64,000 nt of DNA, taken from contig CAVYDB010000007.1 in assembly GCA_963767125.1 (NCBI GenBank), positions 78,083-142,082 of the forward strand, in the 5' to 3' direction. Positions 5,099 to 39,412 of the stretch are shown here, one piece after another; the first letter of the stretch is position 1; every line of letters begins with the position of its first letter. The notes beneath the pieces are model-generated. The model worked only from the letters and a program-made list of their open reading frames with translations. It was not told the DNA's origin and made no database searches. The translations under genes were made by a program, and so were the position numbers. This DNA is from an uncultured Bacteroidota bacterium. GTDB taxonomy: Bacteria; Bacteroidota; Bacteroidia; JABEUT01.

Positions 5099-5111
5099 GA
5101 CCCTACCCCTT

Positions 5112-5131: not shown

Positions 5132-5310
5132 CTTATCTGTAATTTCCTACAAATCACTTATCTGAATTCGAGCACAGCATTTCTCTCCCATACTTTGTGT
5201 TCTTTGCGTGGCTGCTTACTTAGTCAAGATATTTTTAAGAACTTTCAGCATTTCTCCGTGAAACTCTGCTCACCCGGTGGGCTCTGTGTGTTGAAAAGTC
5301 TTTTATCTCC

Positions 5311-6996: not shown

Positions 6997-7255
6997 AATT
7001 TTTTTTATTTGTCGAGGCAAAAGTAATACTTAAAGGAAAATTAAATGTTATAGAATTTGGAAATATATTTATAAAATTCTATCCTGTTTTTACGTCTCCG
7101 GCTTTTGAGGGGCTATATTGTTGTTCAAAATTATTGAAACAGGGAGACCTGCTGCAAACTTTTTATTACTTGTAATAAGTCGCCAATTTTAATCCCCGGA
7201 ATTCCGATATTTGCATCAGGCAATTCATTCTATTCAACCCTATTTTTACCTCATT

Positions 7256-14585: not shown

Positions 14586-15854
14586 ATGCGCAAAATACTT
14601 ACCTATAACATTCTATTTGCTCTCATTCTTTCAACAATAATTGTTAGGGCACAATTAGTAACCCGCATCGTTACATCGAGACAAGCCGACAGCAATGTGA
14701 TGCACGATAACGACACCAACATAGCCATGCTGAATGATTCGGTAACCCGCCTGAATAAGCTATATGTATTTCTGCCGGGTTCGGGCGCTACGCCCCTGGG
14801 ATATGCCGATATTTTGGAAACAGCAGCTAACCTGGGCTATCATTCATTGGGCTTGGGATATAATAATGATTCCACTGTAGCCAGCCTGTGCAGCGGCTTT
14901 GGACCCTGGTGCGAAGGAGCAGTACGGGCAGAAATATTTTACGGGAAAAATTATTCGGCGCAGGTGAATGTAGATACTTCGGAGAGCATACGCACCCGTT
15001 TGGTGGCTATGCTCAAGTACCTGCAGGCGCATCATCCCCTGGATAACTGGGGGCAATATCTCGATGCGAATGATAGTGTGATATGGTCGCAGGTGTGTAT
15101 ATCGGGGCATTCGCAGGGAGCCGCTACAGCATCTCTTATTGCCTATTGGTACCCCGTGTGGAGAGGGGTATTTTTTGCCACCGGGGGCGATGCAAATGAC
15201 AGTTCGCGTTCCGTATCACTATGGATGCAGGGGCATTCCGTCACTCCGCCAGGCAAAAAATATGCCTTCGACCACCGCTATGATGAGTTGTATTGGGGAA
15301 CTTTACCTACCACTCCCGTAATTTGGGATACGCTGGGCATCGGCAACTACCTTGACTTTGATACTCTTTCAGGAAATTATTATCATGCACATTCCTTTAC
15401 CAGTTACGATACGGTTGCAATTCCGCCAAGCCCCATCCGTTATCACAACTGTGTTGTAACCGACCATTTTACTCCCATTATTTCCGGCAATTTCCTTTAC
15501 CTGCCTTTATGGATATATATGCTTACCGACACATCTACTGTAACAGGCATACAAACTGTTATTGCAGATAAAATAAGTGTACTGGTTTATCCCAATCCAA
15601 GCGGGGGCGTGTTTAAGTTCCAAGTAGAAACGGACCGTCCGGATGAACCGTTCGGACGGGAAAAGGGAAAAGGAGAAAGTGGGGAAATAGAAATTTATAA
15701 TGTGCTTGGTGAAAAAGTATATTCTCAATTCAATATTCAAACACCAAGTTTCAACATTGATTTATCTGCTGAGCCCAATGGCATTTATTTTTATCGTGTG
15801 CTTGATAGTAGCGGGGCATTGGAAGTTGACGGGAAGATAGAGATTGAGAGGTAA
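14586..15854 (+). CDS. Secreted alpha/beta-hydrolase-like protein with T9SS C-terminal sorting domain
   Basis: Signal peptide ...STIIVRAQ and a GxSxG nucleophile elbow ISGHSQGAA. The C-terminus is VYPNPSGGVFKF...IEIYNVLGEKVY...NGIYFYRVLDSSG. Confidence 0.5.
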   Translation: MRKILTYNILFALILSTIIVRAQLVTRIVTSRQADSNVMHDNDTNIAMLNDSVTRLNKLYVFLPGSGATPLGYADILETAANLGYHSLGLGYNNDSTVASLCSGFGPWCEGAVRAEIFYGKNYSAQVNVDTSESIRTRLVAMLKYLQAHHPLDNWGQYLDANDSVIWSQVCISGHSQGAATASLIAYWYPVWRGVFFATGGDANDSSRSVSLWMQGHSVTPPGKKYAFDHRYDELYWGTLPTTPVIWDTLGIGNYLDFDTLSGNYYHAHSFTSYDTVAIPPSPIRYHNCVVTDHFTPIISGNFLYLPLWIYMLTDTSTVTGIQTVIADKISVLVYPNPSGGVFKFQVETDRPDEPFGREKGKGESGEIEIYNVLGEKVYSQFNIQTPSFNIDLSAEPNGIYFYRVLDSSGALEVDGKIEIER

Positions 15855-18277: not shown

Positions 18278-19801
18278 CTATCTTCCAAACCAGCGAGCAG
18301 CCTCCTGCCTGATTGATTTTTCACCAGGTTCGCTGTCAGAAGCCCAGGCGATAAACCCGTCGGGGCGTATTAGTGCAGCGCTCAAACCCAATTGCTCTTT
18401 CGCTTTATTAGAAACATATTTTATATGTTCGCTATATTCACCTGCCAGTGCTTTTAGGGAAGCATTATTATTGAAGTCAAGCAATATACCCTTGCCATCC
18501 TGCATTAGCTCGCCAATCATTGTACCATCTTGCAGTTCAAAGTTGGGTACGCTATAGCCTGTTAAAGGGTGTGTGCCCCCGAAATTATAATGCATATTAA
18601 CACCCCACACCCTTCCTGCCATATAGGTGGCTCCATCGCGGGTATCCATCAGGTCGCGGATAATGGCGTTCAGGGCACGGGCATGAGGTTCAGGCCCCAT
18701 AATTGCAGCCTGGGCGCGAGACCAATCCAGCACCTGCACACCAATGGGGTGCCGCTCAGTATAATAACTGTCCAGCAAACCTTGCGGGGCTTTCTCGTGG
18801 ATAGTTGCAGCGAGTTTCCAGCCGAGGTTCATGGCATCGCCCAGTCCGAGGTTTAGCCCCTGACCTCCCAAGGGCGCATGAATGTGTGCTGCATCACCTG
18901 CCAACAGCACCCTACCGTTTCGGTACGTGGTGGCTTGCCTTGCCCGGTCAGTCCAGGTGGTTGCAAAATGCAACGCGCTGATAGTTATATCGGTGCCCGA
19001 GATGCGGCGCAGCACCTCCCGGATATGTTCAAGCGTAATTGGCTCTTCAGAGCCATGAAATGCCCCGCCATCAAAATCTTGTATTGCTAAGTAACCCGGT
19101 TGCGATTGCAGGTACATTCCTCTTGGTGTCATAATTCTGCCGGGCTTTAGCTTCTCCGGGTCAGCAATATCTACTTTAGCAGAGTAGCCGGTAAATTCCG
19201 GTTCTGTTCCGGCAAATTCAAATCCGCCGGCCTTGCGCACAATACTACGCGCCCCATCGCAACCCACAAGCCATTTACCCTGAAAAAATTGGTCACCCGA
19301 CTGAACAGTAACCCCATCTGCCGTCTGCTGAAAGCCGGTAACTGCAAGCCCGCGCTTGATTTCTACACCCCGCATTTCTGCCCGACGAGTTAGCACCGTT
19401 TCAAGTTCCTGCATTTCAGAAATTAAACTGGTGGCGGTAGATCCGGGCAAGCGGTTCTTCCATTGCGAAGTATCAATATCGCCTTCGTGAAGTGGAATGC
19501 CTGCAAAGTGCCCTACTTGCCGGCGCGGACCTTGTACGGCATTCTGGTGCGGATTTTTAAGGCGTTTATGTATCTCCAGTTCTTGCAGGAGTCCCCGGCG
19601 GTAAAGCGCTTCAATAGTAGGTGCAGAAAGCCCCCGTATGCCGAAAGGAAGCTGTTTTAAGGGCGATTGAAGGTTCTCCGCCTTTTCTATTACAAGCACA
19701 GAGCATTTAGCTAATGCCAGTTCGCAGGCAAGAAAAAGCCCGACAGGACCAGCACCGGAAATAAGTACATCGTATATCGGTTGAGGGGAATTGTTATTCA
19801 T
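18278..19801 (-). CDS. Class A FAD-dependent monooxygenase (aromatic hydroxylase / Rox-like architecture)
   Basis: Motifs are DVLISGAGPVGL (GxGxxG), VGCDGARSIVRK and LAGDAAHIHAPLGGQGLNLGLGDAMNLGWKLA. A ~120-aa C-terminal extension ends in LIRPDGFIAWAS...WFG. Confidence 0.75.
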   Translation of the reverse strand: MNNNSPQPIYDVLISGAGPVGLFLACELALAKCSVLVIEKAENLQSPLKQLPFGIRGLSAPTIEALYRRGLLQELEIHKRLKNPHQNAVQGPRRQVGHFAGIPLHEGDIDTSQWKNRLPGSTATSLISEMQELETVLTRRAEMRGVEIKRGLAVTGFQQTADGVTVQSGDQFFQGKWLVGCDGARSIVRKAGGFEFAGTEPEFTGYSAKVDIADPEKLKPGRIMTPRGMYLQSQPGYLAIQDFDGGAFHGSEEPITLEHIREVLRRISGTDITISALHFATTWTDRARQATTYRNGRVLLAGDAAHIHAPLGGQGLNLGLGDAMNLGWKLAATIHEKAPQGLLDSYYTERHPIGVQVLDWSRAQAAIMGPEPHARALNAIIRDLMDTRDGATYMAGRVWGVNMHYNFGGTHPLTGYSVPNFELQDGTMIGELMQDGKGILLDFNNNASLKALAGEYSEHIKYVSNKAKEQLGLSAALIRPDGFIAWASDSEPGEKSIRQEAARWFGR

Positions 19802-19856
19802 GGGTGTGAATTAATTTTAATGAGTGAATATTCATTTATTAAATTGTGAAAAAAAA

Positions 19857-20399
19857 TTAAGGTGTTAAACCTTTTAAAACAATTTCTAAGGTTTGATACA
19901 TTAATTGGTTGCTGAATTTAAAATTGTTTCCGTCAGCGCTTTTCTTTTCATGGTGAAAATGAATGAGTGAATAAAGCGGTCCGTAAGCCAAACTCCAATA
20001 AACAGGGAATGACTTAATAGGAATGAGTTGTTTATTTTTAACGGCATTTTTTAAAAATGTTTCTAACAATGGTCTGAGTTGCTGATTCCCGTTATTCGCC
20101 AGAATATGTTCACCATAAGGTGAATTCCAGAGCATATCCATTAGCTTTGCTGAAAGAGGATTCTTTATGTAAAATTTCGCCCTGTTCTCCCACTGTAGCT
20201 TTAATCCGTCGGAAAAAGATAAACCGGAAGAAAAATTTTTCAAAGAAGCATTCAGCATTTTAGTGCTTTCCTCCAGTCCGGTTTTCAATATTAAATCTTC
20301 TTTGTGCCGGTAATAGATGTAAAGCGTAGCCACTGAAATGTTACAAACCTTAGCTAACTTTTGCATACTGAAGCCATCAAAGCCATTTTCCACCAGCAT
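19857..20399 (-). CDS. TetR/AcrR family transcriptional regulator (N-terminus unusually short)
   Basis: HTH FDGFSMQKLAKVCNISVATLYIYYRHKEDL. The reading frame stays open 15 codons upstream (RDEIKTELVKEQAIK) but contains no ATG/GTG/TTG before a TAG. Confidence 0.75.
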   Translation of the reverse strand: MLVENGFDGFSMQKLAKVCNISVATLYIYYRHKEDLILKTGLEESTKMLNASLKNFSSGLSFSDGLKLQWENRAKFYIKNPLSAKLMDMLWNSPYGEHILANNGNQQLRPLLETFLKNAVKNKQLIPIKSFPVYWSLAYGPLYSLIHFHHEKKSADGNNFKFSNQLMYQTLEIVLKGLTP

Positions 20400-23307: not shown

Positions 23308-23628
23308 ATGCTAACCGATGAGTATTTTGTACATGGGGAATTAAATTTGAAAGGATATTGCCATAAATCTATTCAGCACAATTTGAAAATATATGTGCAG
23401 GGTGACGTACACACTAATACGATTGAAAATTTTTGGAGTGTGTTAAAACGTGGACTTTATGGTATCTACCATTATACCAGTAAAAAGCACTTAGACCGCT
23501 ATCTTGATGAGTTTTGCGCCCGGTACAATACCCGGGATTTGGGAGAAGTGGAAAGATTTGATAATTTCCTATCACAGGCAGGAGGTAAAACTTTGTCTTG
23601 GAAAAGACTGGTACAGGCAACAGTATAA
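23308..23628 (+). pseudogene. IS1595-family transposase, C-terminal fragment only
   Basis: MLTDEY...VQGDVHTNTIENFWSVLKRGLYGIYHYTSKKHLDRYLDEFCARYNTR is the C-terminal third of the IS1595/ISXO2-like DDE transposase. The N-terminal two-thirds and the inverted repeats are absent. Confidence 0.75.
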
Positions 23629-23723
23629 AAAAAACATTTAGGTTTTTTCATTTTTATGGAACAAATTCACAGGTTATTACGTATATTTGTTGAAAACCTA
23701 ACGTTTGCGATATGGAATTATTT

Positions 23724-23731
23724 TATATTTG
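23724..23731 (+). promoter_or_regulatory. Bacteroidota -7 box TATATTTG (second copy at 23682-23689)
   Basis: Matches the established TAnnTTTG consensus, 28 nt upstream of ATG 23760. Confidence 0.4.
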
Positions 23732-23759
23732 CGGCGTTAATACAACACAATAATTAAAT

Positions 23760-24020
23760 ATGTTACACATGGAAACTCCTAAACTGGTATTTACTGTTCT
23801 TGTCATAAAAGACACGAAAAGTGAAAATTACACAGCTATTCTAAAAGAATTAGAAGGGGTGGTTTCTCAAGGAACAACCCCGGAAGAAGCTGTAAAAAAA
23901 CTTCCATTTGTTTTAGCCGGACTTATGGAGGCTAATAGAGAAACTGTTGAAATGCCACCATACAATGCTGAACTTATGAGTGAGAAAGAATTGGTTTACG
24001 AAAATTGCGCGATGGCATGA
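23760..24020 (+). CDS. HicB-like (UPF0150 fold) antitoxin candidate
   Basis: YTAILKELEGVVSQGTTPEEAVKKL resembles the HicB N-terminal motif (..ELPGC.SQG.T.EEA). Its stop overlaps the next start in ATGA. Confidence 0.4.
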   Translation: MLHMETPKLVFTVLVIKDTKSENYTAILKELEGVVSQGTTPEEAVKKLPFVLAGLMEANRETVEMPPYNAELMSEKELVYENCAMA

Positions 24021-24316
24021 CACAGCAGGAACTTGTAGATTATATGTATCTCAATGGTTGTCCATTATTTAAGACAACCAGATACCATACATTTGTTTTC
24101 AGGAATAAAAAATCAGGAAAGAAAGGTAGTATAAGTATTGAGAATACATATATGCCAATTTCTGTTGTGGCATTATGCAAAAGCGTAAGAATTACGTGTC
24201 CTGACCATATGAGAGAACACGATGGATTGTTAAATGATATAATAAAAGAAGTTGATGAAGGTAAGTTAGGGGGAACTTATTACGATCCATCTCCCCGACC
24301 AAAGTCGGAAGCATAA
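24017..24316 (+). CDS. HicA-like toxin candidate
   Basis: The ATG at 24017 overlaps the upstream TGA. ELVDYMYLNGCPLFKTTRYHTFVFRNKKSGKKGSISI...ISVVALCKSVRI aligns loosely with HicA (EL...L...G..L.R..GSH..F....G....V.....L..GTL..I.K...). This is a weak call. Confidence 0.3.
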   Translation: MTQQELVDYMYLNGCPLFKTTRYHTFVFRNKKSGKKGSISIENTYMPISVVALCKSVRITCPDHMREHDGLLNDIIKEVDEGKLGGTYYDPSPRPKSEA

Positions 24317-24540: not shown

Positions 24541-24960
24541 TCAGTCTTCGATAGCCTCAATGCCCAGTTGCCTGGCTCGTTCAACATTGTCTATCATCGT
24601 TTTGAGCTGCCCGGGCGGATGCCCTTGCCAATCCGTCACCTCACCGGTAACGCGCAGGGCAGCCTTTGTGCGGTACGACTTGGTTATATTTCCGGGGAAT
24701 TTTTTGTCTGTCAAATTAGGGTCGTCTTCAATAGTGCCGGTAGGCTCAACGATATAAATCCGGCCCCTTCCGTCGCCCCGGGCAAGCTCGGCTCCCCAGG
24801 TAGCAGCATCAAGGGTAGCGGTGAGATAGACATACAATGCCTTTTTACCCTTCCCAAAGTTTGAAGTAAAGCCGGGTTGAATGAGGTCGCCCGCCTTTAA
24901 ATCGGCTTTGGTGCCATGATAAAGTGTTTGTGAAGTCAAATCGAATGCAGGTTCTCTCAT
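24541..24960 (-). CDS. arr: NAD+--rifampin ADP-ribosyltransferase (Arr)
   Basis: 139 aa. LYHGTKADLKAGDLI, ATWGAELA, GRGRIYIVEPTGTIEDDPNLTDKKFPGNITKSYRT and DWQGHPP match Arr along the whole length. Confidence 0.9.
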   Translation of the reverse strand: MREPAFDLTSQTLYHGTKADLKAGDLIQPGFTSNFGKGKKALYVYLTATLDAATWGAELARGDGRGRIYIVEPTGTIEDDPNLTDKKFPGNITKSYRTKAALRVTGEVTDWQGHPPGQLKTMIDNVERARQLGIEAIED

Positions 24961-24979
24961 CTTTTTTCACATAGATTGT

Positions 24980-25153
24980 GAGGTCCCGAGCGGATTGCTA
25001 AAGCTTCCGCTCTCCCTCGAGTTGCAAATATGAATTGTAAACTCCGTTTCCATTCCTATTTACCCTGAGGTCCCGAGCGGATTGCTAAAGCTTCCGCTCT
25101 CCCTCGAGTTGCAAATATGAATTGTAAACTCCGTTTCCATTCCTATTTACCCT
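24980..25153. repeat. Two perfect 87-bp tandem units, each starting with the 17-nt 3' end of tRNA-Cys
   Basis: Unit GAGGTCCCGAGCGGATT+70 nt occurs at 24980-25066 and 25067-25153 (identical as read). The same 17-mer opens the genuine tRNA at 25154-25170. Confidence 0.95.
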
Positions 25154-25154
25154 G

Positions 25155-25225
25155 AGGTCCCGAGCGGATTCGAACCGCTGTACAAGGTTTTGCAGACCTC
25201 TGCCTAGCCACTCGGCCACAGGACC
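25155..25225 (-). tRNA. tRNA-Cys (GCA)
   Basis: The minus strand GGTCCTGTGGCCGAGTGGCTAGGCAGAGGTCTGCAAAACCTTGTACAGCGGTTCGAATCCGCTCGGGACCT folds as a cloverleaf. It has acceptor GGTCCTG/CGGGACC, anticodon stem GAGGT/ACCTT with loop CTGCAAA, and T arm AGCGG-TTCGAAT-CCGCT. No encoded CCA. Confidence 0.9.
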
Positions 25226-25284
25226 TTTTTTAAAAATGAGGTGCAAAGGTAATAAATATTGGAATGGCAGTATGCCCTACTCTT

Positions 25285-26679
25285 TTACTGAACCACAAAT
25301 TTATATTCTCCTATCAGTGCCCCTGTATCAGACAGTACCCTGTAAAGATACATACCCGGGGGGCGGGAGCTGATATTGATAGCGTTATCGGACTGCCCCT
25401 GCACAAGAGTAGCGCTATATACCATTTCACCAAGCATATTGTAAATTTCGATAGATGAGGCTCCGCTGCCTGATGATACATGAAGGATAAACTGCCCGTT
25501 ATTAGGATTAGGATATAGCTTAACAGATGCATTATTTTTAATAGTATTGATACCTGTAGAAGGCAATACATATTTAAAAATAACCCCGGCATAATTTGAC
25601 CCTCCGCCTATGGCTGTTGTCCCAAACAAGGTATGCCCTGAAATGGTAACGTTGCTAATGGGGTCATCACCGTTGGTACCATTGAAATCAAATAAATCGT
25701 TGTACACATAATTTGTATCCATCGAAAAAATACAGCCTGAATCATTCACGCCACCCACCTGGGCCATGCCATACAATTCACTTCCGGAAAGAACCAAATC
25801 GCCATCGGGATATTGACCGTAAGGAGATGTAGTTCCATCTAAATCTACCAGGTCGGCAAACCCTACCCCATTGGTATCAATAGAGAAAATATTACCATCT
25901 TCGTTTACACCGCCTCCATTTGTCATCCCGAAAAACTGGTATTTGCTTAATGTCAACAGGTTATTTGGGTAAGCCCCATCGTTCCCGCTAAAATCATACA
26001 TGTCAACAAAGCCGGTTCCATCAGAGTCCATAGAAAAAATATTACCAATACCATCCGCACCGCCATAACCGCCCATGCCATATAATTTATGCCCGATAAT
26101 GGTTACATCTCCATAAGGGCTTTGCCCGTCAGTGCCATCAAAATCAAACAGGTCTTTGTAATTATTTCCATTGGTATCCATCGTAAAAATATTTCCCATA
26201 ATATTTACTCCGCCGGTAAAAGTAATACCAAACATTTTATTACCCGACAGCACTAACGAACCAATAGGAGAAGCCCCGTTGGGGCCATTAAAGTCGAGTA
26301 AATCACGGTAATCAGCCCCGCTGGTATCAATAGAAAATACACAGCCGCTGTCGTTCAACCCTCCCCCGGCAACCATTCCATACAACTTATTCCCCGAAAG
26401 TTTTAATGAACCTCCCTGTGGATATGCCCCGTTTTCTCCGTCAAAGTCAAATATGTCTTTGTAATTGGCACCGCTGGTATCCATCGAAAAAATACACCCC
26501 ACTCCATTTACCCCTCCGCCATTTGCCATTCCATATAATTTGGAAGAGGAAAGCGTGAGAGCCCCCAGAGGATATGCCCCCGTAGTGATATCAAATGAAT
26601 GGAGAACAGTGTATTGGGCATCGGTAATAAATGTTCCTAAACAGAACAAAGCGGAAAATAATACGTAATACTTTTTCAT
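25285..26679 (-). CDS. Gloeo_Verruco-type repeat protein with T9SS C-terminal sorting domain
   Basis: A ~50-aa unit is repeated about 7 times (LYGM..GGG.N..G.IFS.DT.G..Y.DL.DF.G.NG..P.G.L.LSG.KL). There is a signal peptide, and the C-terminus is LYPNPNNGQFIL...IEIYNMLGEMVY...PGMYLYRVLSDTG. Confidence 0.6.
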   Translation of the reverse strand: MKKYYVLFSALFCLGTFITDAQYTVLHSFDITTGAYPLGALTLSSSKLYGMANGGGVNGVGCIFSMDTSGANYKDIFDFDGENGAYPQGGSLKLSGNKLYGMVAGGGLNDSGCVFSIDTSGADYRDLLDFNGPNGASPIGSLVLSGNKMFGITFTGGVNIMGNIFTMDTNGNNYKDLFDFDGTDGQSPYGDVTIIGHKLYGMGGYGGADGIGNIFSMDSDGTGFVDMYDFSGNDGAYPNNLLTLSKYQFFGMTNGGGVNEDGNIFSIDTNGVGFADLVDLDGTTSPYGQYPDGDLVLSGSELYGMAQVGGVNDSGCIFSMDTNYVYNDLFDFNGTNGDDPISNVTISGHTLFGTTAIGGGSNYAGVIFKYVLPSTGINTIKNNASVKLYPNPNNGQFILHVSSGSGASSIEIYNMLGEMVYSATLVQGQSDNAINISSRPPGMYLYRVLSDTGALIGEYKFVVQ

Positions 26680-26789: not shown

Positions 26790-27422
26790 TTAGGTCAACT
26801 CCAGCTTCCCTCTTACCAAATAAACCCCTAATACATCTTTCCGCTTTATTTCCATAGGCTCAAACTTTTCGTTGGCGCTTTTCAAAATAAATAAGGTTTT
26901 ATTAGAAGTATGAGGATGTATGTATTTCAATACGGAATAGTCGGCAAGCAGCACTATATGCGGCTCTCCGTAAGATATATGGCTTTGGTCATTTATTTTT
27001 TTACAAACTACAATATCACCGTTGCAATATTTGGGATACATGCTATGTCCATTTACACGCACTGCAATATGGCAGTCTTTAAAATGAGGAATAGTTAAAA
27101 AATAAGAAGCGTTTTTCACCTGTTCACCAAAGTTATTTACGTTGCCGCCTGTAACACTGGCTTCATAAAAAGGAATTTGAACCTCAGGCTCAGGGGTATG
27201 TGCCACTTTCGGTTCTTTTAACAGCCCTTTTTGAATCTTGGGGTTGTCTAAATCAAATCCAATGTGTCTAATTTTGTCTATATAATAGTCGTCCAGTATT
27301 TCCCGTTTAAAGAGAAGATACACATTCGCCCTTGATATTCCCATACCATCGGCAACTTCAGTAACGGTAAGGTTACTGTTATTTACCAGTTTTTTAAAAT
27401 ATTCTCCCTGATGCATAAGCAA
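26790..27422 (-). CDS. Phage CI-like repressor (HTH + S24/LexA-type peptidase domain)
   Basis: N-terminal HTH LTVTEVADGMGISRANVYLLFKRE. The C-terminal VRVNGHSMYPKYCNGDIVVCKK shows the S24 Ser/Lys arrangement. The gene is divergent from a Cro-like gene. Confidence 0.8.
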   Translation of the reverse strand: MLMHQGEYFKKLVNNSNLTVTEVADGMGISRANVYLLFKREILDDYYIDKIRHIGFDLDNPKIQKGLLKEPKVAHTPEPEVQIPFYEASVTGGNVNNFGEQVKNASYFLTIPHFKDCHIAVRVNGHSMYPKYCNGDIVVCKKINDQSHISYGEPHIVLLADYSVLKYIHPHTSNKTLFILKSANEKFEPMEIKRKDVLGVYLVRGKLELT

Positions 27423-27446
27423 TTAATAGCAGTGTTAATAATTTAG

Positions 27447-27505
27447 TGTCCATTTATTTGACATTCATATAATCTATCGTCTACTTTTGTGTCCAATTTA
27501 TGACG
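27447..27505. promoter_or_regulatory. Operator-like repeats in the repressor/cro divergent region
   Basis: GTGTCCATTTATTTGAC (27447-27463) and GTGTCCAATTTATGAC (27490-27505). An inverted half-site TGACACAC lies at ~27523-27530. Confidence 0.5.
27483..27490 (+). promoter_or_regulatory. -7 box TACTTTTG for the rightward (cro-like) transcript
   Basis: Matches TAnnTTTG. Its last base is the first base of the second operator repeat. Confidence 0.45.
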
Positions 27506-27745
27506 CAAATATATACAAAAATGACACACCCGACACTTACCCAAAAAATGCGCAGCCTGGCACAACGTGACCGGGACCTGCAAATTGCTATTGCCCAGGA
27601 AATTGGAATAGCCATAGTCACTATTTACCAATGGGCAAAATATTATCCCGAACGGCTTGCAAAGAACAGGGCAGCGTTGAGAGTAATTCTTCAATATATG
27701 AAGGAAAACAAAAAAACAGTAAAGCAGCAATTCACAAAAAATTAA
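27500..27745 (+). CDS. Cro/Ner-like small HTH protein
   Basis: 81 aa with HTH IAIAQEIGIAIVTIYQWAKYYP, first gene of the rightward early operon. The start may be Met 27521. Confidence 0.6.
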   Translation: MTQIYTKMTHPTLTQKMRSLAQRDRDLQIAIAQEIGIAIVTIYQWAKYYPERLAKNRAALRVILQYMKENKKTVKQQFTKN

Positions 27746-27755
27746 ACCTATCACC

Positions 27756-27887
27756 ATGTTAAACAAATTCAAAACACACTGCATACTGCGCAGGCAAAAA
27801 AGCAGCATTACTGTATGGCTCATCCTAATTGTACTAACAGAACTGCTGGTTTTGGGCTTACTGACATGGTTCATATTTCAGGCCTGA
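27756..27887 (+). CDS. Small single-TM protein (43 aa)
   Basis: Own reading: MLNKFKTHCILRRQKSSITVWLILIVLTELLVLGLLTWFIFQA. It is below the track size cut-off. Confidence 0.3.
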   Translation: MLNKFKTHCILRRQKSSITVWLILIVLTELLVLGLLTWFIFQA

Positions 27888-27920
27888 ATCTTATATCTTT
27901 TATACTTAATTATTTTTATT

Positions 27921-28127
27921 ATGAATACTACTCATCACGCGCAAACACCCGGGGATAAATTTCCGGCGGGGAGTTTAAACACAAAAGACATTCAGTTTAC
28001 CCAGGCGAAAAAAGCAAGTGATAAACCGGAAGAAACATTCATCATTCACGATGCAAAAATTATTACTCCCCGGCCTTATGGAGTATTTGCCTTATGTAAA
28101 ATTTTTGAACACCTGCAGATTAACTAA
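27921..28127 (+). CDS. Hypothetical early phage protein
   Basis: 68-aa ORF in the early operon orientation. No motif. Confidence 0.4.
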   Translation: MNTTHHAQTPGDKFPAGSLNTKDIQFTQAKKASDKPEETFIIHDAKIITPRPYGVFALCKIFEHLQIN

Positions 28128-28437
28128 CCCGGATAGCTATCGGCAACCGGCCAATTACCAAACCGTGCCAAAAATTATGATAACCATGCAAAACGGACAA
28201 ACAATAACAGCTTCCCCGCCGGAAAGCTTTCGCAAAAAATGGGAAAGGCTTCCTGCCGATGAATACCTGTATCGCTACCTGCTGGCAAATACTCCTCTTA
28301 CAGCCTGCAATGACGGGCTGCCTGATGAAGAACAAAAGGTGCTGAAATATTTCGGAGTAAAATACTGGGAACCGGGGACTGAAGAGGTGGAATTTCAAGG
28401 AAAAAAGTACAAATCGGTTATACCTTATGAGTTATGA
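28018..28437 (+). CDS. Hypothetical early phage protein (start uncertain, possibly ATG ~28176)
   Basis: The 139-aa track ORF overlaps the previous ORF. The C-terminal part is acidic/aromatic and has no motif. Confidence 0.4.
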   Translation: MINRKKHSSFTMQKLLLPGLMEYLPYVKFLNTCRLTNPDSYRQPANYQTVPKIMITMQNGQTITASPPESFRKKWERLPADEYLYRYLLANTPLTACNDGLPDEEQKVLKYFGVKYWEPGTEEVEFQGKKYKSVIPYEL

Positions 28438-28791
28438 GTTATCTACAAATACTACTTACTATTTACTCAATATGGATCATAACTTATAACTGACAAAATG
28501 AAATACTACGAATTTAATTACACAAACGGCTCTTATCAAATAAATAGCAACCCCGGCTTTAATCCCCTGTGGATAGCAGCAGCGCTGGGTTTATTAATGC
28601 TTCTTATCGCTTTACTATACCATTAATATGATACAATTCTCAACCTGTAAAGGAGCCCTGTTTCACCTTATTCCGTTGCCCTTTGTGGCGATGGGAAAAT
28701 GTGAGGCATGCAATGCAATCGTGTTATTACCCGGCATAAACACAGGTACTGAAATATTTACCATTCAACTACATTTTAAATCAACAAAACC

Positions 28792-29118
28792 ATGAAAAGG
28801 ATAGAAACAAGAAACGAGGTAAAAGCCATAGTAGATATGAACCCCGATGGAATTTCACTTACGCATTTGATGAATAAATTTCAGCGCATTACAACCCGCC
28901 TCCAACTGCGCACTATGCTGGGTGCGCTTTTTACCAACAGCGAAATAAGCAGGGAACGGATTTGCATACACAACCGACGGGTAACAAAATATTTCCCTTT
29001 TAACGGTACCCCGCCTGTGAAAAAAAAGAGAAACAAGGTAAAAGAAAGAAACAGGAAAATGCTGTCTATGAAAGATTTTATGCCGGGCAGAAAATACAGC
29101 CCCTACATAGATTTTTAA
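28792..29118 (+). CDS. Hypothetical basic protein, possible winged-helix DNA binder
   Basis: 108 aa. ISLTHLMNKFQRITTRLQLRTMLGALF followed by the basic tail VKKKRNKVKERNRK. Inference only. Confidence 0.4.
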   Translation: MKRIETRNEVKAIVDMNPDGISLTHLMNKFQRITTRLQLRTMLGALFTNSEISRERICIHNRRVTKYFPFNGTPPVKKKRNKVKERNRKMLSMKDFMPGRKYSPYIDF

Positions 29119-29256
29119 CTCATTACGGAAGCAATAATGGAACCGGTTAAGTTGACAGAAGCTGCAGGCGCGCTGATAATCGTATGGATTATTGTGCTGC
29201 TTTCCTGGGAAGAATTTATAGCGTGGTGGACCAATAGAGATAATGATAATTGAGAT

Positions 29257-29877
29257 ATGGGCAAAGATCCGGCATTCCTGTTTTACACTTCCGATTTCCT
29301 GATGGGAACTATGCTGTTGTCGTTTGAAGACAGGGGGAAATACATCACCCTGCTGTCTTACATGCACCAGTCGGGCAGGGCAACTGAAGAAACAGTAAAG
29401 TCGCTGGTGGGAGATACTTCAGCCAAACTAAAAATAAAATTTAAAATAGATACTAAAGGATTATGGTATAATGAACGGCTGGAGCAAGAGATTGCAAGGC
29501 GTAAAAAATTTTCAACCCGTTGCCGTGGTAATGGAAAATTAGGGGGGAGGCCACCACTTGGAAATCCTAAAATAATTTCACTTGAATCTCAGGGAAATGA
29601 AAAATATCCGTTTGAGAAATTCTGGAAGATGTATGACAAACCTACCGAAAAAATAAGTTGTGCATTAAAGTGGGTAAAGTTAACTGAAAATGAAAAAGAA
29701 CAAATCTTTCAGCGCCTGCCTGCTTATGTAACTGCCACACCCGAAAGGCAGTTCCGGAAGAACCCGCTCACCTATTTAAACCGCAAAGCCTGGATGGATG
29801 AGATATTGCCGGAACCTCATAAACCGGTTAAAAAATCGGCCATTGAAATATTGGTGGAAACAGGAAAGTATGAATAA
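29257..29877 (+). CDS. DUF1376 (YdaU-like) phage replication-associated protein
   Basis: N-terminal PAFLFYTSDFLMGTMLLSFEDRGKYITLLSYMH is the DUF1376 signature. Confidence 0.65.
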   Translation: MGKDPAFLFYTSDFLMGTMLLSFEDRGKYITLLSYMHQSGRATEETVKSLVGDTSAKLKIKFKIDTKGLWYNERLEQEIARRKKFSTRCRGNGKLGGRPPLGNPKIISLESQGNEKYPFEKFWKMYDKPTEKISCALKWVKLTENEKEQIFQRLPAYVTATPERQFRKNPLTYLNRKAWMDEILPEPHKPVKKSAIEILVETGKYE

Positions 29878-30415
29878 CCGCCCAAAAATAGCATCGCTCA
29901 CAGAAAAGGAACTTGGCGCCCTTTTGTCAGCGGCATTTTTCATTATAGGGAAGGATATTCGGTTACCGGCAGATAAATTAAAACTGTTTTTAGGAGAAGT
30001 ATATAAGTACCAGGGAGGGAAATATGTGGATGATTTCAATGAAGCATTTTCAAAATATGCAGCGCTTGAATTACCGAATGCTGAAACCCTGCGCCCGCAG
30101 GTATCGCCATTATTTATTAGCAGCCTGATGAAATTATATGCGAACAGGAATTCCAATAGCAGCCCGGCAAAAAAAACAGTAAAAGATAAACTGCTTGTTT
30201 TGACCCCTGAAAATAAATTTACACTTTTTGTTAAATATATTACCACCGGCAAAAGCCTGCCGGGTAACCCTGACTGGGTAACTATTTACGAATACCTCAC
30301 CGGGATAAATAAACTCCTCCTTCACCCGGAATGGGGCTCTATGGGTTACCACCATAAATGGAAATATGCCATGCAAACGCTTACAGAGTGGGCTTACAGG
30401 AACTATAACCTATGA
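29870..30415 (+). CDS. Hypothetical early phage protein
   Basis: ATG 29870 overlaps the upstream stop (ATGA). The track ORF starts earlier, inside the previous gene. Confidence 0.5.
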   Translation: MNNRPKIASLTEKELGALLSAAFFIIGKDIRLPADKLKLFLGEVYKYQGGKYVDDFNEAFSKYAALELPNAETLRPQVSPLFISSLMKLYANRNSNSSPAKKTVKDKLLVLTPENKFTLFVKYITTGKSLPGNPDWVTIYEYLTGINKLLLHPEWGSMGYHHKWKYAMQTLTEWAYRNYNL

Positions 30416-30434
30416 AAGATGAACAAGAAAACAA

Positions 30435-30698
30435 ATGAACAATATGAAAAAAATAGCGGCAATGCAGGAATACCTTCAACAGCTTTATGAAACGTATGAT
30501 GTGTTTCAAACGGAGTACAGGCACTTACACAAACGTTCAAAAATGCACGATACCGAACCGGTGGCTGAATACTACCTCCGCTGGAGAGACCGTATGCGGG
30601 CGGAAATACGAAGGATTGAAACGTTACTGATTAAGCTCCTGCCCTACCCCTGCAAACCGTGTATCAATACCGGAATAGAGATGAATGATAAGGTATAA
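30435..30698 (+). CDS. Hypothetical early phage protein
   Basis: 87 aa, helical, same orientation. Confidence 0.45.
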   Translation: MNNMKKIAAMQEYLQQLYETYDVFQTEYRHLHKRSKMHDTEPVAEYYLRWRDRMRAEIRRIETLLIKLLPYPCKPCINTGIEMNDKV

Positions 30699-30757
30699 GT
30701 TAATTACAAATTTATCATTCATTATAACTCATAACTTATAGCTCATACCTGAATTTC

Positions 30758-31225: not shown

Positions 31226-33313
31226 TTATTTCACCACATCCACCCGTTGAACCAGGGTGCTGCCATTTTGCAAAATCACTTTCAGGATATAAACTCCGGT
31301 AGGGAATTGGCTGGTATTGATAACCGATAATTGTGAATTTTCTGAACCATTGAATTGGTGGGCATAAACTTGCTGGCCGGTAATAGAATATACTTCTATA
31401 GACTGAGCCGCTTTCTGCCCTTGTAATTGAACGGTAAATTCATCGGTGGCAGGATTAGGATATACTGCTATGCGGGCATTATTGGTAATAGTGGGGACAC
31501 CTACCGTGCAACTGCTTACAATAATACTCTGCTGGGCGGTACTGCCACATCCGGCTGAATCGGTATAAGAGTACGTAAAATTATATGTACCTGGTCCGGC
31601 AGCATTTGGGTTAAACACGTTCCCTGTTAAATTTGGGCCACCATACATACCACCGGCAGGAATACCAAAAAGGGTGTCTGCCAATAAGGAATCGCAAGCA
31701 GAATAAATCCCTGCATTCAGAATAACAAGCGGTATAGGCAGCGTGGTAACATACGCTTGCGCTGAATCATAACAGCCATTGGTATCATTTACAAATACAT
31801 AATATCCTATAGTACCTGTATCGGCAGGAACAGTAAGGGTATCTTCGGTTTGTCCATTATAATCCCAGGTATAAGTCAGCGGACCCATTCCGCCGGAAGC
31901 CCCGGCAGTCAATAATACCTCCGTATTAGCACATATTGATGGGTTTGGAGGGGTCAGCGTAATCGTAATAGCAGCAGGTTGGGTAATTACCACCGTACCC
32001 GTACCGGAACATCCTATACCATCGGTAATAGTAACCGTATAAGTTCCGGCAGATACATTGTCAACTTCAGAATTGGTACTGCCCGTTGGCGACCAGGAGT
32101 AAGTATAAGGAGCAAAAGGAGAAACCGGGAATGCTACAATTATACCATCGGTGCCTCCGTTACATTCCGGGTAGTTATATGATACCGCAGTGGCAGAGTC
32201 GCCCACACAGCCCGGGGTGATTTTTCTAATCCTGTTGTTTCCCAGGTCAGATATAAAGAGGTTTCCGTTCGCATCGGGTATCGCATCAAACGCATAATTT
32301 ATTTCAGCAAGATAAGCCGCTCCGCCATCGCCGCTAAATCCGGCAGTGTTATCTCCGGCAATGGCATACATAGTATTATTACTTGCAACTACTTCCCAAA
32401 CTAAGGCATTACCCGGGTCGGAAATAAAAACATTACCGTTAGCATCGGTAGTTACATTGGTAGGGTCCCAAATTTCGGTAGTATCAGGTGTGCCTGAAAA
32501 CCCGTTAAAACCTGGTGTCCGGTTTCCGGCAAATGTGCTGATTACCCCTGCGGCAGTAACCTTACGAACATCATTGCTATTATATTCGGCTATATACATA
32601 TTTCCGGTAGGGTCAATAGCTACACCGGCCGGTTGGTTTAATTCAGCAAGGGTAGCCTGTGCGCCGTCGCCGGAAAAGCCTCCATTATTTGTGCCTGCTC
32701 CAAAACCATTTCCCGCTACTGTTGTTATAACTCCGGTGCCTACGGTTACTTTACGAATTACATGGTTGGTTTGGTCAGCTATATATACGTTCTGCGCATT
32801 ATCAAGGCATATTCCCGTGGGGTCGGCAAATTCAGCCGCCGTAGCTTGTCCGCCATTGCCGGTATATCCTCCAAAACCGTTTCCGGCTATGGTGCTTATT
32901 CTTCCTGTACCCACAGTTATCTTGCGGATAACACCGTTTCCGTTATCAGAGAAATAAACATTCCCCGTCGGGTCAACACGTACACACACCGGGTAGTCTA
33001 TTTCTGCCGCCGTAGCAAGCCCACCATCGCCGGTATAACCGCCAACACCTCGTCCGCCTATCGTGGTTATAAGCCCCGTGGTGCTTACCTTACGGATACG
33101 GTTATTTTGAGAATCGGCTATATATATATTGCCGGTAGCATCTACGGCAACACTGTTGTTTTGGTCCAGGTCGGCAAGCGTAGCCTGTATATTATCTCCA
33201 TTATACCCGGCTGCAGCTCGGCCGGCTACGGTAGATATGATTCCCGATTGGGCATGCAACATGGCAAGGGACGAACCCAGCGCAACGAATGTAAATGCAA
33301 GTAGTTTTTTCAT
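31226..33313 (-). CDS. NHL-repeat + SprB-type repeat protein with T9SS C-terminal sorting domain
   Basis: Signal peptide ...LAMLHAQ. About seven repeats follow of the type TVAG.G..GY.GDGG.AT.AE...P.GV..D..GN.YIAD..N..IRKV. A Cys-rich SprB-like segment (CNGGTDG...YTYSWSPTG...GTYTVTITDGIGCS) comes next. The C-terminus is VYPNPATDEFTV...IEVYSITGQQVY...TGVYILKV. Confidence 0.7.
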   Translation of the reverse strand: MKKLLAFTFVALGSSLAMLHAQSGIISTVAGRAAAGYNGDNIQATLADLDQNNSVAVDATGNIYIADSQNNRIRKVSTTGLITTIGGRGVGGYTGDGGLATAAEIDYPVCVRVDPTGNVYFSDNGNGVIRKITVGTGRISTIAGNGFGGYTGNGGQATAAEFADPTGICLDNAQNVYIADQTNHVIRKVTVGTGVITTVAGNGFGAGTNNGGFSGDGAQATLAELNQPAGVAIDPTGNMYIAEYNSNDVRKVTAAGVISTFAGNRTPGFNGFSGTPDTTEIWDPTNVTTDANGNVFISDPGNALVWEVVASNNTMYAIAGDNTAGFSGDGGAAYLAEINYAFDAIPDANGNLFISDLGNNRIRKITPGCVGDSATAVSYNYPECNGGTDGIIVAFPVSPFAPYTYSWSPTGSTNSEVDNVSAGTYTVTITDGIGCSGTGTVVITQPAAITITLTPPNPSICANTEVLLTAGASGGMGPLTYTWDYNGQTEDTLTVPADTGTIGYYVFVNDTNGCYDSAQAYVTTLPIPLVILNAGIYSACDSLLADTLFGIPAGGMYGGPNLTGNVFNPNAAGPGTYNFTYSYTDSAGCGSTAQQSIIVSSCTVGVPTITNNARIAVYPNPATDEFTVQLQGQKAAQSIEVYSITGQQVYAHQFNGSENSQLSVINTSQFPTGVYILKVILQNGSTLVQRVDVVK

Positions 33314-33745
33314 AGTTTTATAATAAAATAAATTTAGCAGTTTTAATGATTAATTTTTTTTAAGTTTCAAGGTTCTCTGAAAGGCGTTACAAAAATCAAT
33401 ATGCAATATTACAAAAAATATGCTTCTGTGCAACAAAAAGCATAAATTATTAGTAATTTATTAATAACCAGTGACATTTCATCTCCGTTTATCTTGTTTT
33501 CAAGTAGGTTTTATTACCAGGTAGGTTTATAACAAAAGATTCTGAAAGCCCGATAATATAGATTTCTTTCCAGACCTGATGGGGGTATATCTGTACTGGG
33601 TTTTAAGTGAGAACGGCGAATTAGAGGGGAAGGGGGAAGTGGGGGCATATCCTTTTAAGCTTGGCTTTGTTTGTAAGTACAACTTACTTGTTATTAACCC
33701 ACTAAGCACAGCTTAGCGGGTACGGGGGCTTGGGGCATAACCTAC

Positions 33746-35128
33746 CTATTTTATAATTACTATTTTATCTCTTTTCACTATATTATTATCTACCGAAATT
33801 CTGTATAAATAAATGCCCTCACTTAGCGTACTTGCATTAATGTTCATTTTATCACTATTGGCATCCAATGTATATTCCGCCAGTTTTTCTCCTAACATAT
33901 TGTAAATGGTAAATTCCCCGGTTTGTCCCGTCTGCAATTGATACGTTAGGGTGAAGCCTCCGTTATTGGGGTTGGGGAAAACAGACACTTGCCCTTTTTC
34001 CATCTGTAAATTATTAATTCCAAGCGGGGTTCTCCATTGAGCAATATTATTGGCTGGAGTCCCTCCGGCATTAGTGAAAGTGCCGGCTGCAAAAAGTGCA
34101 GCGTTAAAATTATACAAGGAATAAACATACCCATTCATTCCCGAACCGAATGTTCCCCAGGTTGCTCCATTCCAATAGGCGATATTCTTTGCAGGTATGC
34201 CTCCTGCTGTATCAAAAATTCCTCCAACACATACAGCCGAATCATATACACATAAACCGAAAACATAATGATTGAGATGCAAATTATAAGGTATTCCAGT
34301 TCCTAACTGAGCCCAGGTGGTCCCATTCCACATAGCGATATTATTGCCCGGTTGTCCTCCGGCGCTATCAAATTGCCCTCCTACATAAAGAAGATTATTA
34401 AATACTGCCATACTTAAAACAGAGCCGTTTTTACTGATTCCCCCATTTACCGCAGTCCATGTCGTTCCGTTCCACTTTGCAATATTATTCACTGCAATAC
34501 TACCTGCACTATCGAAAGTACCACCCGCATAGAGTTCACCATTATAAGTACATAGAACATCAATGGGGACATAATTATTACGGCTATTACGAATGCCTGT
34601 TCCTACAGATGCCCATGCCGTACCATTCCATTTGGCAATATTGGTAGTATTCATTCCCCCGGCACTATCAAAATAGCCTCCTGCATAAAGTTCCCCGTTG
34701 TATATACATAAGGCATTAATTACAGCATTCGTAGTATATGATATTCCTAAGCCAACCGGCGCCCAAAGTATTCCATTCCACGCAGCAATAGTATAAACAG
34801 GCAAAATTCCTGAACTGTCAAATCGTCCTCCGGCATATAAAAGACCATTATAAACACATAGCGCATTAACCTCATTATTTAACCCTGAATCTAAGACAGA
34901 CCAACTTGTTCCATTCCATTCTGCTATACCATTACATCGTCTCCCGCCTGCATAATTAAAATCTCCTGCGGCATAGAGATTGTTTTGAAATTGAGTTTGT
35001 GCATATACTCCGCCCAAGGCTGACCCCGGAGAATAAGATATGATTCCATGGTTAAGAGAATCCCAATTTTGAGCATTAACGAAAAGGAAACTAAAAACGA
35101 AGCCAGAGAGTATGAGTAGTTTTTTCAT
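33746..35128 (-). CDS. Beta-propeller repeat protein with T9SS C-terminal sorting domain
   Basis: The ATG at 35128 gives signal MKKLLILSGFVFSFLFVNAQ. About 7 repeats follow of NIA.WNGT.W...G.G......V.AL..YNG.LYAGG.FD.AGG. The C-terminus is VFPNPNNGGFTL...FTIYNMLGEKLAEY...EGIYLYRISV. Confidence 0.7.
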   Translation of the reverse strand: MKKLLILSGFVFSFLFVNAQNWDSLNHGIISYSPGSALGGVYAQTQFQNNLYAAGDFNYAGGRRCNGIAEWNGTSWSVLDSGLNNEVNALCVYNGLLYAGGRFDSSGILPVYTIAAWNGILWAPVGLGISYTTNAVINALCIYNGELYAGGYFDSAGGMNTTNIAKWNGTAWASVGTGIRNSRNNYVPIDVLCTYNGELYAGGTFDSAGSIAVNNIAKWNGTTWTAVNGGISKNGSVLSMAVFNNLLYVGGQFDSAGGQPGNNIAMWNGTTWAQLGTGIPYNLHLNHYVFGLCVYDSAVCVGGIFDTAGGIPAKNIAYWNGATWGTFGSGMNGYVYSLYNFNAALFAAGTFTNAGGTPANNIAQWRTPLGINNLQMEKGQVSVFPNPNNGGFTLTYQLQTGQTGEFTIYNMLGEKLAEYTLDANSDKMNINASTLSEGIYLYRISVDNNIVKRDKIVIIK

Positions 35129-35313
35129 AGCATTTAATTTTGACCAAATATGATTATTCAAATCCTTTTTGTCAAGCTACATTTATTAAATGGCGGGTTT
35201 GACTTATTAAACGGTGGGTTTTGGGGGATAAAAAGAGGTTTTATCGCTCTATAATCACCTTCCCTTCCCCGAACCCCGCTCTTTCCTCCCCCCCATGGGG
35301 GAGAGCATATCTT

Positions 35314-36723: not shown

Positions 36724-36889
36724 AAAACTTTAATTTGACGGTAAAGATACAATTATTTCTAAGGCATCACTTTCCTGTTTTTGCTAGCCTGTTCTTTACT
36801 ATCCCCCAAGGGGGAGAGCATAACTTTATCTTTCTATTATTATTTTTGCAATTCCGTGTGATTATATTCAGGTTGATTTTTATTTCTGT

Positions 36890-38659: not shown

Positions 38660-38710
38660 TAATTCTGATTAAGAAATGCGAAGGTACAACATTGCGCTAT
38701 AAGAAACTGT

Positions 38711-38947
38711 TTATTTTATAATTACTATTTTATCTCTTTTCACTATATTATTATTTACTGAAATTCTGTATAAATAAATACCTTGGCTTAAGTTGCTTGC
38801 ATTAATGTTCATTTTATCGCTATTGGCGTCTAATGTATATTCCGCCAGTTTTTCTCCTAACATATTGTAAATGGTAAATTCCCCGGTTTGTCCTTTCAGT
38901 AATTGATACGTCAGGGTGAAGCCCCCGTTATTCGGGTTGGGATATAA
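38711..38947 (-). pseudogene. Orphan T9SS CTD-coding fragment (no signal peptide or body)
   Basis: Own translation: LYPNPNNGGFTLTYQLLKGQTGEFTIYNMLGEKLAEYTLDANSDKMNINASNLSQGIYLYRISVNNNIVKRDKIVIIK*. It is near-identical at nucleotide level to 33746-33985. An in-frame TGA at 38966-38968 cuts off anything upstream. Confidence 0.85.
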
Positions 38948-38963
38948 GTTAAAGCTGAACCAA

Positions 38964-39080
38964 GTTCAGCATGACTACAAGATAAACATATCCTCCCAAT
39001 CCAACGGAATTTATTTTTATAGGATGCTGAAAGAAAATGGTGATTTAATTGGCGAAGGAAAGGTGATGATAGAAAAGTAG
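38964..39080 (+). pseudogene. Second orphan CTD-coding fragment, convergent with the first
   Basis: Own translation: VQHDYKINISSQSNGIYFYRMLKENGDLIGEGKVMIEK*, which is the last ~35 aa of a CTD only. It abuts the minus-strand fragment at the palindrome GCTGAAC-CAA-GTTCAGC (38954-38970). Confidence 0.75.
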
Positions 39081-39412
39081 GGATTTTAGCGCAAATTATG
39101 GCGTTAAAATAGAGCAGTAAATAATGAAAATGCATTTATCGTATAATTTTTTATTAACCTTTGCTTAACTAAAAACACCCCCTGAAACTCAATAGGGACA
39201 CAAGTCTTGGGGAATAGCCTCATACTCTGAATGTTAAGTAGCCGGATTTATGTCTCGCCCAAACGCCAGCCCGAAACATTCCTGCCCGAAAGGCATGGTC
39301 AGGCGGGCATTCTGGCGGGTACCATCCGGTATGGGCGGGCGTTTTATGCCGTTATTTTTATGGCTTAAAGTTCATTAACATTTCCTATCTTGGTCCTCAT
39401 AAAATTACTTGT

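Follow-up and report, generated by a model that had tools for sequence, protein, structure and literature searches.

Copies of a tRNA 3' end lying downstream of the tRNA gene itself have been described in the E. coli tyrTV operon and at the islands that tyrosine integrases insert into tRNA genes. We analyzed an array of this kind in a 64-kb stretch of DNA from an uncultured Bacteroidota bacterium (contig CAVYDB010000007.1; this whole stretch is the window below). Two identical 87-nt units, each closed by a 17-nt copy of the tRNA 3' end that we call the core, stand there between a tRNA-Cys gene and arr, a rifampin resistance gene.

The anatomy of the E. coli tyrTV operon was re-derived from the genome record (NC_000913.3 1286300-1288300, our locus L054), in which the repeats occupy positions 405-963 as a 178-bp unit present in 3.1 copies with 95% identity. 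Each unit ends in the 19-nt 3' end of tRNA-Tyr, AATCCTTCCCCCACCACCA, starting at the AATCC of the T-loop, and each holds its 10-nt complement, GGGGAAGGAT, which RNAfold pairs with the pseudo 3' end. The end of the annotated E. coli small RNA (sRNA) rttR coincides exactly with the first pseudo 3' end, and rttR has been reported to derive from a single repeat unit of the tyrT operon (PMC3318445). For integrases, tandem islands have been described that are bounded by 3'-end repeats, have their insertion point in the T-loop and carry a conserved motif upstream of each repeat (PMC3146451), and tRNA gene fragments left by element integration are pervasive (PMC9897764).

In the window, ARAGORN finds a single tRNA gene, tRNA-Cys(GCA), which the Rfam tRNA model matches at 25155-25225 with 60 bits. 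Reading in the direction of the tRNA, the order is tRNA-Cys, an 87-nt unit, an identical 87-nt unit, 19 nt and the ATG of arr, with the following features:

25244-25251, minus strand: Bacteroidota sigma-A -7 box TACCTTTG, a perfect match, 19 nt ahead of the tRNA 5' end (motif scan).
25154-25225, minus strand: tRNA-Cys(GCA), including core copy 1 at 25154-25170 (ARAGORN, Rfam).
25067-25153, minus strand: unit A, proximal to the tRNA, made of a 70-nt spacer (25084-25153) and core copy 2 (25067-25083) (Tandem Repeats Finder, 17-mer search).
25111-25150 and 25067-25105, minus strand: hairpin 1 and hairpin 2 of unit A (folding).
24980-25066, minus strand: unit B, distal, made of a 70-nt spacer (24997-25066) and core copy 3 (24980-24996) (Tandem Repeats Finder, 17-mer search).
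25024-25063 and 24980-25018, minus strand: hairpin 1 and hairpin 2 of unit B (folding).
25112-25119 (unit A) and 25025-25032 (unit B), minus strand: one-mismatch -7-like box CATATTTG, which coincides with the 3' side of hairpin 1 (motif scan).
24961-24979, minus strand: A-rich leader of 19 nt, ACAATCTATGTGAAAAAAG, joining core copy 3 to the arr ATG (sequence).
24541-24960, minus strand: arr, NAD+-rifampin ADP-ribosyltransferase, 139 aa (Pfam, NCBIfam).

Tandem Repeats Finder reports the array at 24979-25170 with a period of 87, 2.2 copies, 100% matches and 0% indels. The 17-mer GAGGTCCCGAGCGGATT is present exactly three times in the window (24980, 25067 and 25154), and no further copy with up to 3 mismatches occurs in the whole 64 kb, where 0.03 would be expected by chance. 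On the tRNA strand the core reads AATCCGCTCGGGACCTC, and the repeated stretch of 17-18 nt (AATCCGCTCGGGACCTC[A]) runs from halfway along the T-loop to the 3' end of the tRNA. The repeat is thus the 3' part of the tRNA in direct orientation downstream of an intact gene, with the first copy inside the tRNA. Both units end in the last 17 nt of tRNA-Cys, so that the array of two units and one core opens and closes with a core. The initial annotation had described three 17-nt copies, two identical 87-bp units and arr 19 nt further on along the tRNA strand, and both the coordinates and Tandem Repeats Finder agree.

The window shares the design of the tyrTV operon. In both, head-to-tail repeats come after a tRNA gene and close with a fragment of its 3' part, this fragment also stands at either end of the array, identity to the tRNA sets in at AATCC of the T-loop, and the unit contains an internal complement of its pseudo 3' end (GGGGAAGGAT in E. 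coli, GAGCGGA in the window). The view that the arrangement is unusual in kind is therefore contradicted by tyrTV, where tandem units ending in a tRNA 3' fragment have the same design. The two differ in that the E. coli unit measures 178 bp and that of the window 87 bp, and in that the tRNA-Cys gene of the window has no encoded CCA; the two share no homology in sequence. Moreover, E. coli has its units fixed in the species, where they encode a known sRNA and a small peptide, whereas the array of the window adjoins a resistance gene. Rfam includes an rtT family; we found no rtT homology of the units when scanning 24900-25300 with E-values up to 10, which returned the true tRNA and one chance-level match to a long non-coding RNA. 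The tyrT parallel keeps the idea of an RNA processing role alive as a rival explanation.

The array likewise resembles the attL/attR repeats made by tyrosine integrases, with direct 3'-end repeats downstream of an intact gene, an edge of identity within the T-loop, a conserved motif just upstream of each repeat and the same core as the phage attachment site (attP) of integrase-bearing phages. This class of repeats takes in the tandem islands at Dehalococcoides ssrA and cis-mobilizable elements (CIMEs), and some of its repeat-bounded segments are likewise devoid of an integrase (PMC3146451; PMC9897764). Unlike kilobase cargo islands, the segments studied here are 70 nt long (132 nt in the related locus L050), non-coding and mutually identical, and the window has no integrase in its 64 kb and no donor element that we could identify.

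The identity of the core comes from viral contigs. Six of them turned up when IMG/VR was searched for exact copies of the 17-mer, which in all six lies outside any tRNA gene. An open reading frame (ORF) of about 380 aa lies 130-170 nt from the 17-mer in every one of the six contigs, and all five of these ORFs that were tested with Pfam contain Arm-DNA-bind_5, SAM_5 and Phage_integrase domains. The layout of the viral contigs runs from non-tRNA DNA to the core, then to a terminator hairpin and the integrase. Since it lies outside tRNA genes and beside tyrosine integrases, the 17-mer is the attP core of temperate phages that target tRNA-Cys and supply it with a replacement 3' end and a terminator. 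In the phage attPs the identity to the tRNA begins 0-6 nt upstream of AATCC, inside the T-loop, and in the units of the window it begins exactly at AATCC, within the same zone. A terminator hairpin follows the core in every viral contig, and hairpin 1 follows each core in the units. The repeated tRNA 3' end had been proposed to be the footprint of a tyrosine integrase, a proposal that is strengthened by finding the same core as attP beside integrases in six viral contigs.

To place the units in a wider context, we scanned a genome collection with the 45-nt 3' half of the window tRNA and obtained 43 tRNA-Cys loci from Flavobacteriales-like metagenome-assembled genomes (MAGs) and Marinoscillum. 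Two of the 43 loci sharing this identical tRNA 3' half, L015 and L050, both Bacteroidota MAGs, carry homologous units, and a degenerate pattern scan added the metagenome contigs L052 and L053. In L015, tRNA-Cys is followed by units 1 and 2, of 90 nt each and three substitutions apart, and then by unit 3, in which identity to the tRNA stops after AATCC and a restriction-modification island abuts. A type II restriction-modification pair lies at 4789-6521 of this locus, consisting of a C5 DNA methyltransferase-like ORF of 329 aa and a 246-aa partner. L050 has the tRNA, one longer unit and a core, with a 132-nt spacer and cores 149 nt apart. The same 149-nt unit, with one indel, is found in L053 between flanks that differ on both sides and switch exactly at the two core edges. 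In L052, non-tRNA DNA with a short direct repeat leads into the last 23 nt of the tRNA, a unit and a decayed core (4 mismatches in 17 positions).

Breakpoints thus fall at core edges, between L050 and L053 and at unit 3 of L015; they are seen in related loci and not in the lineage of the window. Cores distal to the tRNA and accompanied by foreign DNA occur in L015, L033 and L053. L033 has a bare partial core, GCTCGGGACCTCA, about 185 nt after tRNA-Cys, with its own small hairpin before it and repeated CATTAGGGYTCGTTAGG motifs after it, and it is another secondary att junction from a different type of element. Three species (L011, L013 and L032) share a flank of about 90% identity over the first 160 nt after tRNA-Cys, with repeated GTTTCACCA motifs, and L011 has a tyrosine integrase 2.2 kb downstream of tRNA-Cys. 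This flank looks like a shared family of integrative elements, and the elements at these three loci make tRNA-Cys a real integration hot spot. A resemblance between the distal flank of L053 and this element was considered and dropped, as a 23-nt match with an E-value of 0.003 is too weak; for L053 we used the breakpoints alone.

The distribution of the units is patchy. The homologous units are flanked by the restriction-modification island in L015 and by unrelated DNA in L050, L052 and L053, and a unit profile run with nhmmer found no further homologues in the fetched loci beyond those of the window, L015, L050, L052 and L053. A protein search with the antisense ORF of the L015 array returned 44 antisense tRNA-Cys ORFs; repeated units were present in none of the 16 inspected, which took in all matches covering more than about 30% of the query. 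This patchiness, together with the lack of synteny with the window, fits the traffic of mobile elements.

Folding gives two hairpins per unit. Hairpin 1 starts 3-4 nt past the core and has the long stem GCAAATA...TATTTGC. In L015 and L052 it reaches -20 to -28 kcal/mol with a T-run present and, from its predicted structure, looks like a (bidirectional) intrinsic terminator. Two double-sided compensatory changes separate the type found in L015 units 1 and 2 from the type found in L015 unit 3 and L052. In most units the tRNA-sense strand is, owing to G.U pairs, more stable than its antisense counterpart. Hairpin 1 of the window has decayed: it folds with -7.2 kcal/mol and has no T-run. Terminator scans found no canonical terminator between tRNA-Cys and arr, the 19-nt leader included, while at least 35 of the 43 related loci have a canonical intrinsic terminator within 100 nt of tRNA-Cys.

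In hairpin 2, GAG-N2-3-GAGCGGA pairs with the core TCCGCTC-GGGA-CCTC across a variable loop of 10-12 nt. The version in the window, GAGG-GA-GAGCGGA, an 11-nt loop and TCCGCTC-GGGA-CCTC, is the RNAfold minimum-energy structure of the segment (-19.9 kcal/mol). The fold is the one given in the initial annotation, and it recurs in the homologous units. Its description as a minihelix like the acceptor and T-arm was not supported: the acceptor-strand GGGA is unpaired, the discriminator base is paired, and ARAGORN and Rfam detect only the true tRNA, even with E-values up to 10. Hairpin 2 is also not universal, as its core half is decayed in L052 and replaced in L015 unit 3. We also considered that a unit might be a decayed whole tRNA or tRNA 3' half, given TTGCAA and AGCGG at a tRNA-like spacing of 11 nt; this is not demonstrable, since TTGCA doubles as the 3' side of hairpin 1 and no tRNA model gives the units a score.

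Taken together, these results suggest that the array is probably a recombination footprint, that is, an array of att cores at a tRNA-Cys integration hot spot which has been amplified by unequal recombination. The core is the site used by tyrosine integrases that bring phages and islands into tRNA-Cys genes of Bacteroidota. The original order would have been core, 70 nt, core, an attL/attR pair around a short non-coding remnant. This remnant would consist of a hairpin in the position of the tRNA terminators brought by incoming elements and of a core-proximal arm with GAGCGGAA, and may have been a minimal, arm-only element comparable to a cis-mobilizable element without cargo. Unequal recombination between the two cores, homologous or mediated by an integrase, would then have produced the second unit recently enough for it to be still identical. 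The first gene of the DNA next to the last core is arr, in a patch with debris of insertion sequences (IS) and toxin-antitoxin genes, and the decay of hairpin 1, which leaves no terminator, may allow arr to be expressed by read-through from the tRNA-Cys promoter.

The array would open and close with a core because unequal recombination acted on an ancestor with a core on either side, and such an ancestor is what site-specific integration yields. That an integrase made the first unit fits the identity of the core with attP, the boundary in the T-loop, the hairpin that follows the core and the breakpoints at core edges. These four features lead us to infer an integrase-made origin.

Several observations weigh against a recombination footprint. 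No tyrosine integrase was found in the window by Pfam on 28 ORFs, by tblastn or by an integrase hidden Markov model (HMM) run on all ORFs, as the initial annotation had already noted. The DNA between the cores is 70 non-coding nt with no cargo, and the 64 kb hold no distal core. No donor was found in IMG/VR by exact or degenerate searches for the spacer, the module, the core with the start of hairpin 1, or the GGAA-loop-core pattern, and neither the INPHARED phages nor the PLSDB plasmids matched the array in blastn. None of the 43 tRNA-Cys loci has orthologs of window genes near the tRNA. Further, the GAGCGGA complement is absent from the phage attPs, and GAGCGGAA is invariant, save for one C-to-T change that gives a U.G pair, among spacers with 25-35% difference elsewhere. 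In one core a C-to-T change creates a G.U pair, and both substitutions in the stem allow G.U pairing on the tRNA strand. Such constancy hints that hairpin 2 is under selection, something a pure scar does not predict.

It is conceivable, though we would hold it only tentatively, that the 70-nt unit is a selected and horizontally spreading module, either a landing pad or decoy or an rtT-like module, that also drives arr. If so, the module would pair a tRNA terminator with a spare integrase target held in a hairpin, at which phages and islands could integrate while the essential tRNA gene is spared. At the RNA level it would give rise to rtT-like processed RNAs, and the terminator decayed here would let the tRNA promoter drive arr.

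A rather unlikely explanation is that the unit is a functional RNA module like the E. coli rtT, transcribed by read-through from tRNA-Cys, with the pseudo 3' end serving as a processing or stability signal. Small RNAs or a hairpin-capped 5' end of the arr mRNA would result, and arr expression would be coupled to the tRNA promoter. The missing terminator between tRNA and arr, set against the terminators of at least 35 of the 43 relatives, would suit such a module. So would a two-hairpin architecture kept in units only 65-75% identical, the compensatory changes and strand-specific G.U pairs of hairpin 1, the invariance of GAGCGGAA and the E. coli precedent, in which the tyrT repeat product rttR (PMC3318445) stops at the first pseudo 3' end and the unit has its 10-nt complement. 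However, hairpin 2 is a poor mimic of an acceptor/T-arm and gets no score from tRNA models, its core half is decayed at 4 of 17 positions in L052 where hairpin 1 is intact, and the core is replaced altogether in L015 unit 3. Hairpin 1 of L015 and L052 has the look of an efficient terminator, at which transcription would end short of hairpin 2, and the L015 units have no downstream gene in the same orientation. With two stem substitutions only, the wobble argument is weak (p ~0.25).

Alternatively, slippage or unequal crossing-over may have duplicated native tRNA-flanking DNA in tandem without any integrase, an explanation that we consider improbable. The att match would then be a coincidence, arising because the tRNA 3' end is involved in both. 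The complete identity of the two units does indicate that the last step was a recent duplication, the tyrTV operon demonstrates that arrays of this sort can persist as chromosomal features, and neither an integrase nor a donor element was found. Yet plain duplication leaves the extra terminal core unexplained, because a core on both sides of the spacer must exist beforehand. Nor does it account for flanks that break exactly at core edges (L050 and L053) or after AATCC (L015 unit 3), or for cores that stay near-perfect while spacers diverge by 25-35%.

An assembly artefact is unlikely as the source of the array. In its specific form, a loop of the de Bruijn graph walked twice at a true locus with one unit, we regard it as very improbable, even though loop resolution is expected to give perfectly identical units and the short-read Logan contigs of run ERR11630394 break within the array region and fail to span it. 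A single unit flanked by repeats of 17-18 nt would not branch the graph at k=31. Logan contig L001, however, opens with the 31-mer GGAAGCTTTAGCAATCCGCTCGGGACCTCAC, the first k-mer that tells the unit-to-arr junction from the unit-to-unit junction. Branching at this point means that both junctions exist, and the assembly graph, rather than a read count, therefore implies at least two units at the locus. The same contig independently joins the end of unit B to the arr leader. Tandem arrays of the unit are in any case real, as L015, an independent MAG, has two full units told apart by three substitutions. In the same run, contig L002 differs from the window in the D-loop of tRNA-Cys (GAGAGG at 8560-8575 of L002, GAGTGG at 25205-25215 of the window). 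It carries the identical type IX secretion system (T9SS) gene and ends where the k-mers of the two D-loop variants merge, which suggests two strains or alleles in the sample.

The genes arr-2 and arr-3 are classic integron cassettes, and the array resembles a cassette array in having repeated, hairpin-forming sequences like recombination sites beside arr. An integron cassette array can be dismissed, as the window has no integron-type integrase or tyrosine recombinase and its repeats are direct copies of a tRNA end with no attC features (R''/R' boxes), precede arr only and have no attC-like site after arr.

The arr ORF itself is well supported, with a match to Pfam Arr-ms (PF12120) at 7e-47 and 158 bits against a cutoff of 25, and to the NCBIfam rifampin_ARR equivalog NF033144 at 208.7 bits against a cutoff of 130. 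The protein is about 80-83% identical to Arr proteins across phyla, including Paraburkholderia and cyanobacteria. The exact protein was found only in the source contig and one Logan run, and no close relative turned up in a comparable context, the next-best matches (about 83%) being spread over phyla. Arr is absent from all loci with homologous units (L015, L050, L052 and L053). The initial annotation had seen in the units either the scar of the arrival of an islet with arr or a device wiring arr to the tRNA. By its own test the first idea falls, as homologous units sit in loci without arr. The second finds no backing either, since homologous units elsewhere never accompany arr and no close Arr relative shares this context. 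We conclude that arr is a neighbour of the array and not a component of the repeat system.

How arr may be transcribed can be considered from the promoter motifs. The Bacteroidota -7 consensus is TAnnTTTG at -12 to -5 (PMC9723704). The intergenic DNA upstream of arr has a single perfect box, that at 25244-25251, which presumably serves tRNA-Cys as its promoter; another perfect box, TAAATTTG, falls within the upstream ORF at 25296-25303. TTACCTTTGCAC is also present upstream of tRNA-Cys in L015. As there is no terminator between the two genes, co-transcription of tRNA-Cys and arr by read-through from the strong tRNA-Cys promoter is plausible on the basis of the sequence, as is processing at the pseudo 3' ends. 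Another possibility is that TTTGCAA, the one-mismatch -7 box of the units, acts as a promoter. If this box were active, the predicted start would, speculatively, lie about 2 nt before hairpin 2, at its base.

The DNA directly beyond arr (23308-24316) is mobile-element debris and comprises three features:

23308-23628, plus strand: C-terminal fragment of an IS1595 transposase, 106 aa (Pfam DDE_Tnp_IS1595, 2.6e-18).
23760-24020, plus strand: HicB-like ORF (PHROG HicB-like, 9e-4).
24005-24316, plus strand: ORF without an assigned function, overlapping the HicB-like ORF.

Elsewhere in the window, a 507-aa flavin adenine dinucleotide (FAD) monooxygenase at 18278-20399 (minus strand) has the rifampin monooxygenase NF033145 as its best NCBIfam match (340 bits, below the cutoff of 800) and adjoins a TetR-family regulator. 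Judged from this match, a further gene for rifamycin modification may lie here, 5 kb from arr. A lone gene for a phage terminase large subunit (Terminase_3, 6e-46) among chromosomal genes at 8841-10214 (minus strand) probably derives from a prophage. A block of small phage-like genes at 26790-30700, 5' of tRNA-Cys, with among them a CI-like S24 repressor (26790-27422) and an ORF like replication-initiation or primosomal proteins (29257-29877), may be what is left of a cryptic phage or satellite; it yielded no integrase. Beta-propeller/NHL proteins with a T9SS sorting domain (Por_Secre_tail) are unusually dense at 5311-7020, 14586-15854, 25285-26679 and 31226-41023, which places the window in Bacteroidota.

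Of the initial interpretation, the att-like core and the hairpin hold up, whereas the unusual design and the wiring to arr do not. The array belongs with the direct repeats of tRNA 3' ends and the tandem repeats of the tyrT type that are linked to tRNA genes, a known kind. It is most likely not a new device connecting a tRNA to a resistance gene but a recombination footprint of this known kind. The one detail for which this reading does not account is the conserved complement by which the spare core is kept in a hairpin, and hairpin 2 may have a role of its own.

Taken as a footprint, the array identifies tRNA-Cys as a hot spot of active integration in this uncultured Bacteroidota lineage. A rifampin resistance gene at the edge of such a hot spot, with no terminator after a strong tRNA promoter, illustrates a cheap route by which an acquired gene could be expressed. 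Two observations would carry more weight if they prove general. One is that unrelated genomes hold, at tRNA-Cys, a small two-hairpin unit with a spare integrase target; the other is that the 45-year-old E. coli tyrT repeat shares its design, its complement and its T-loop boundary. By this analogy, we suggest that tyrT-type repeats and the att scars of integrases may be one phenomenon.

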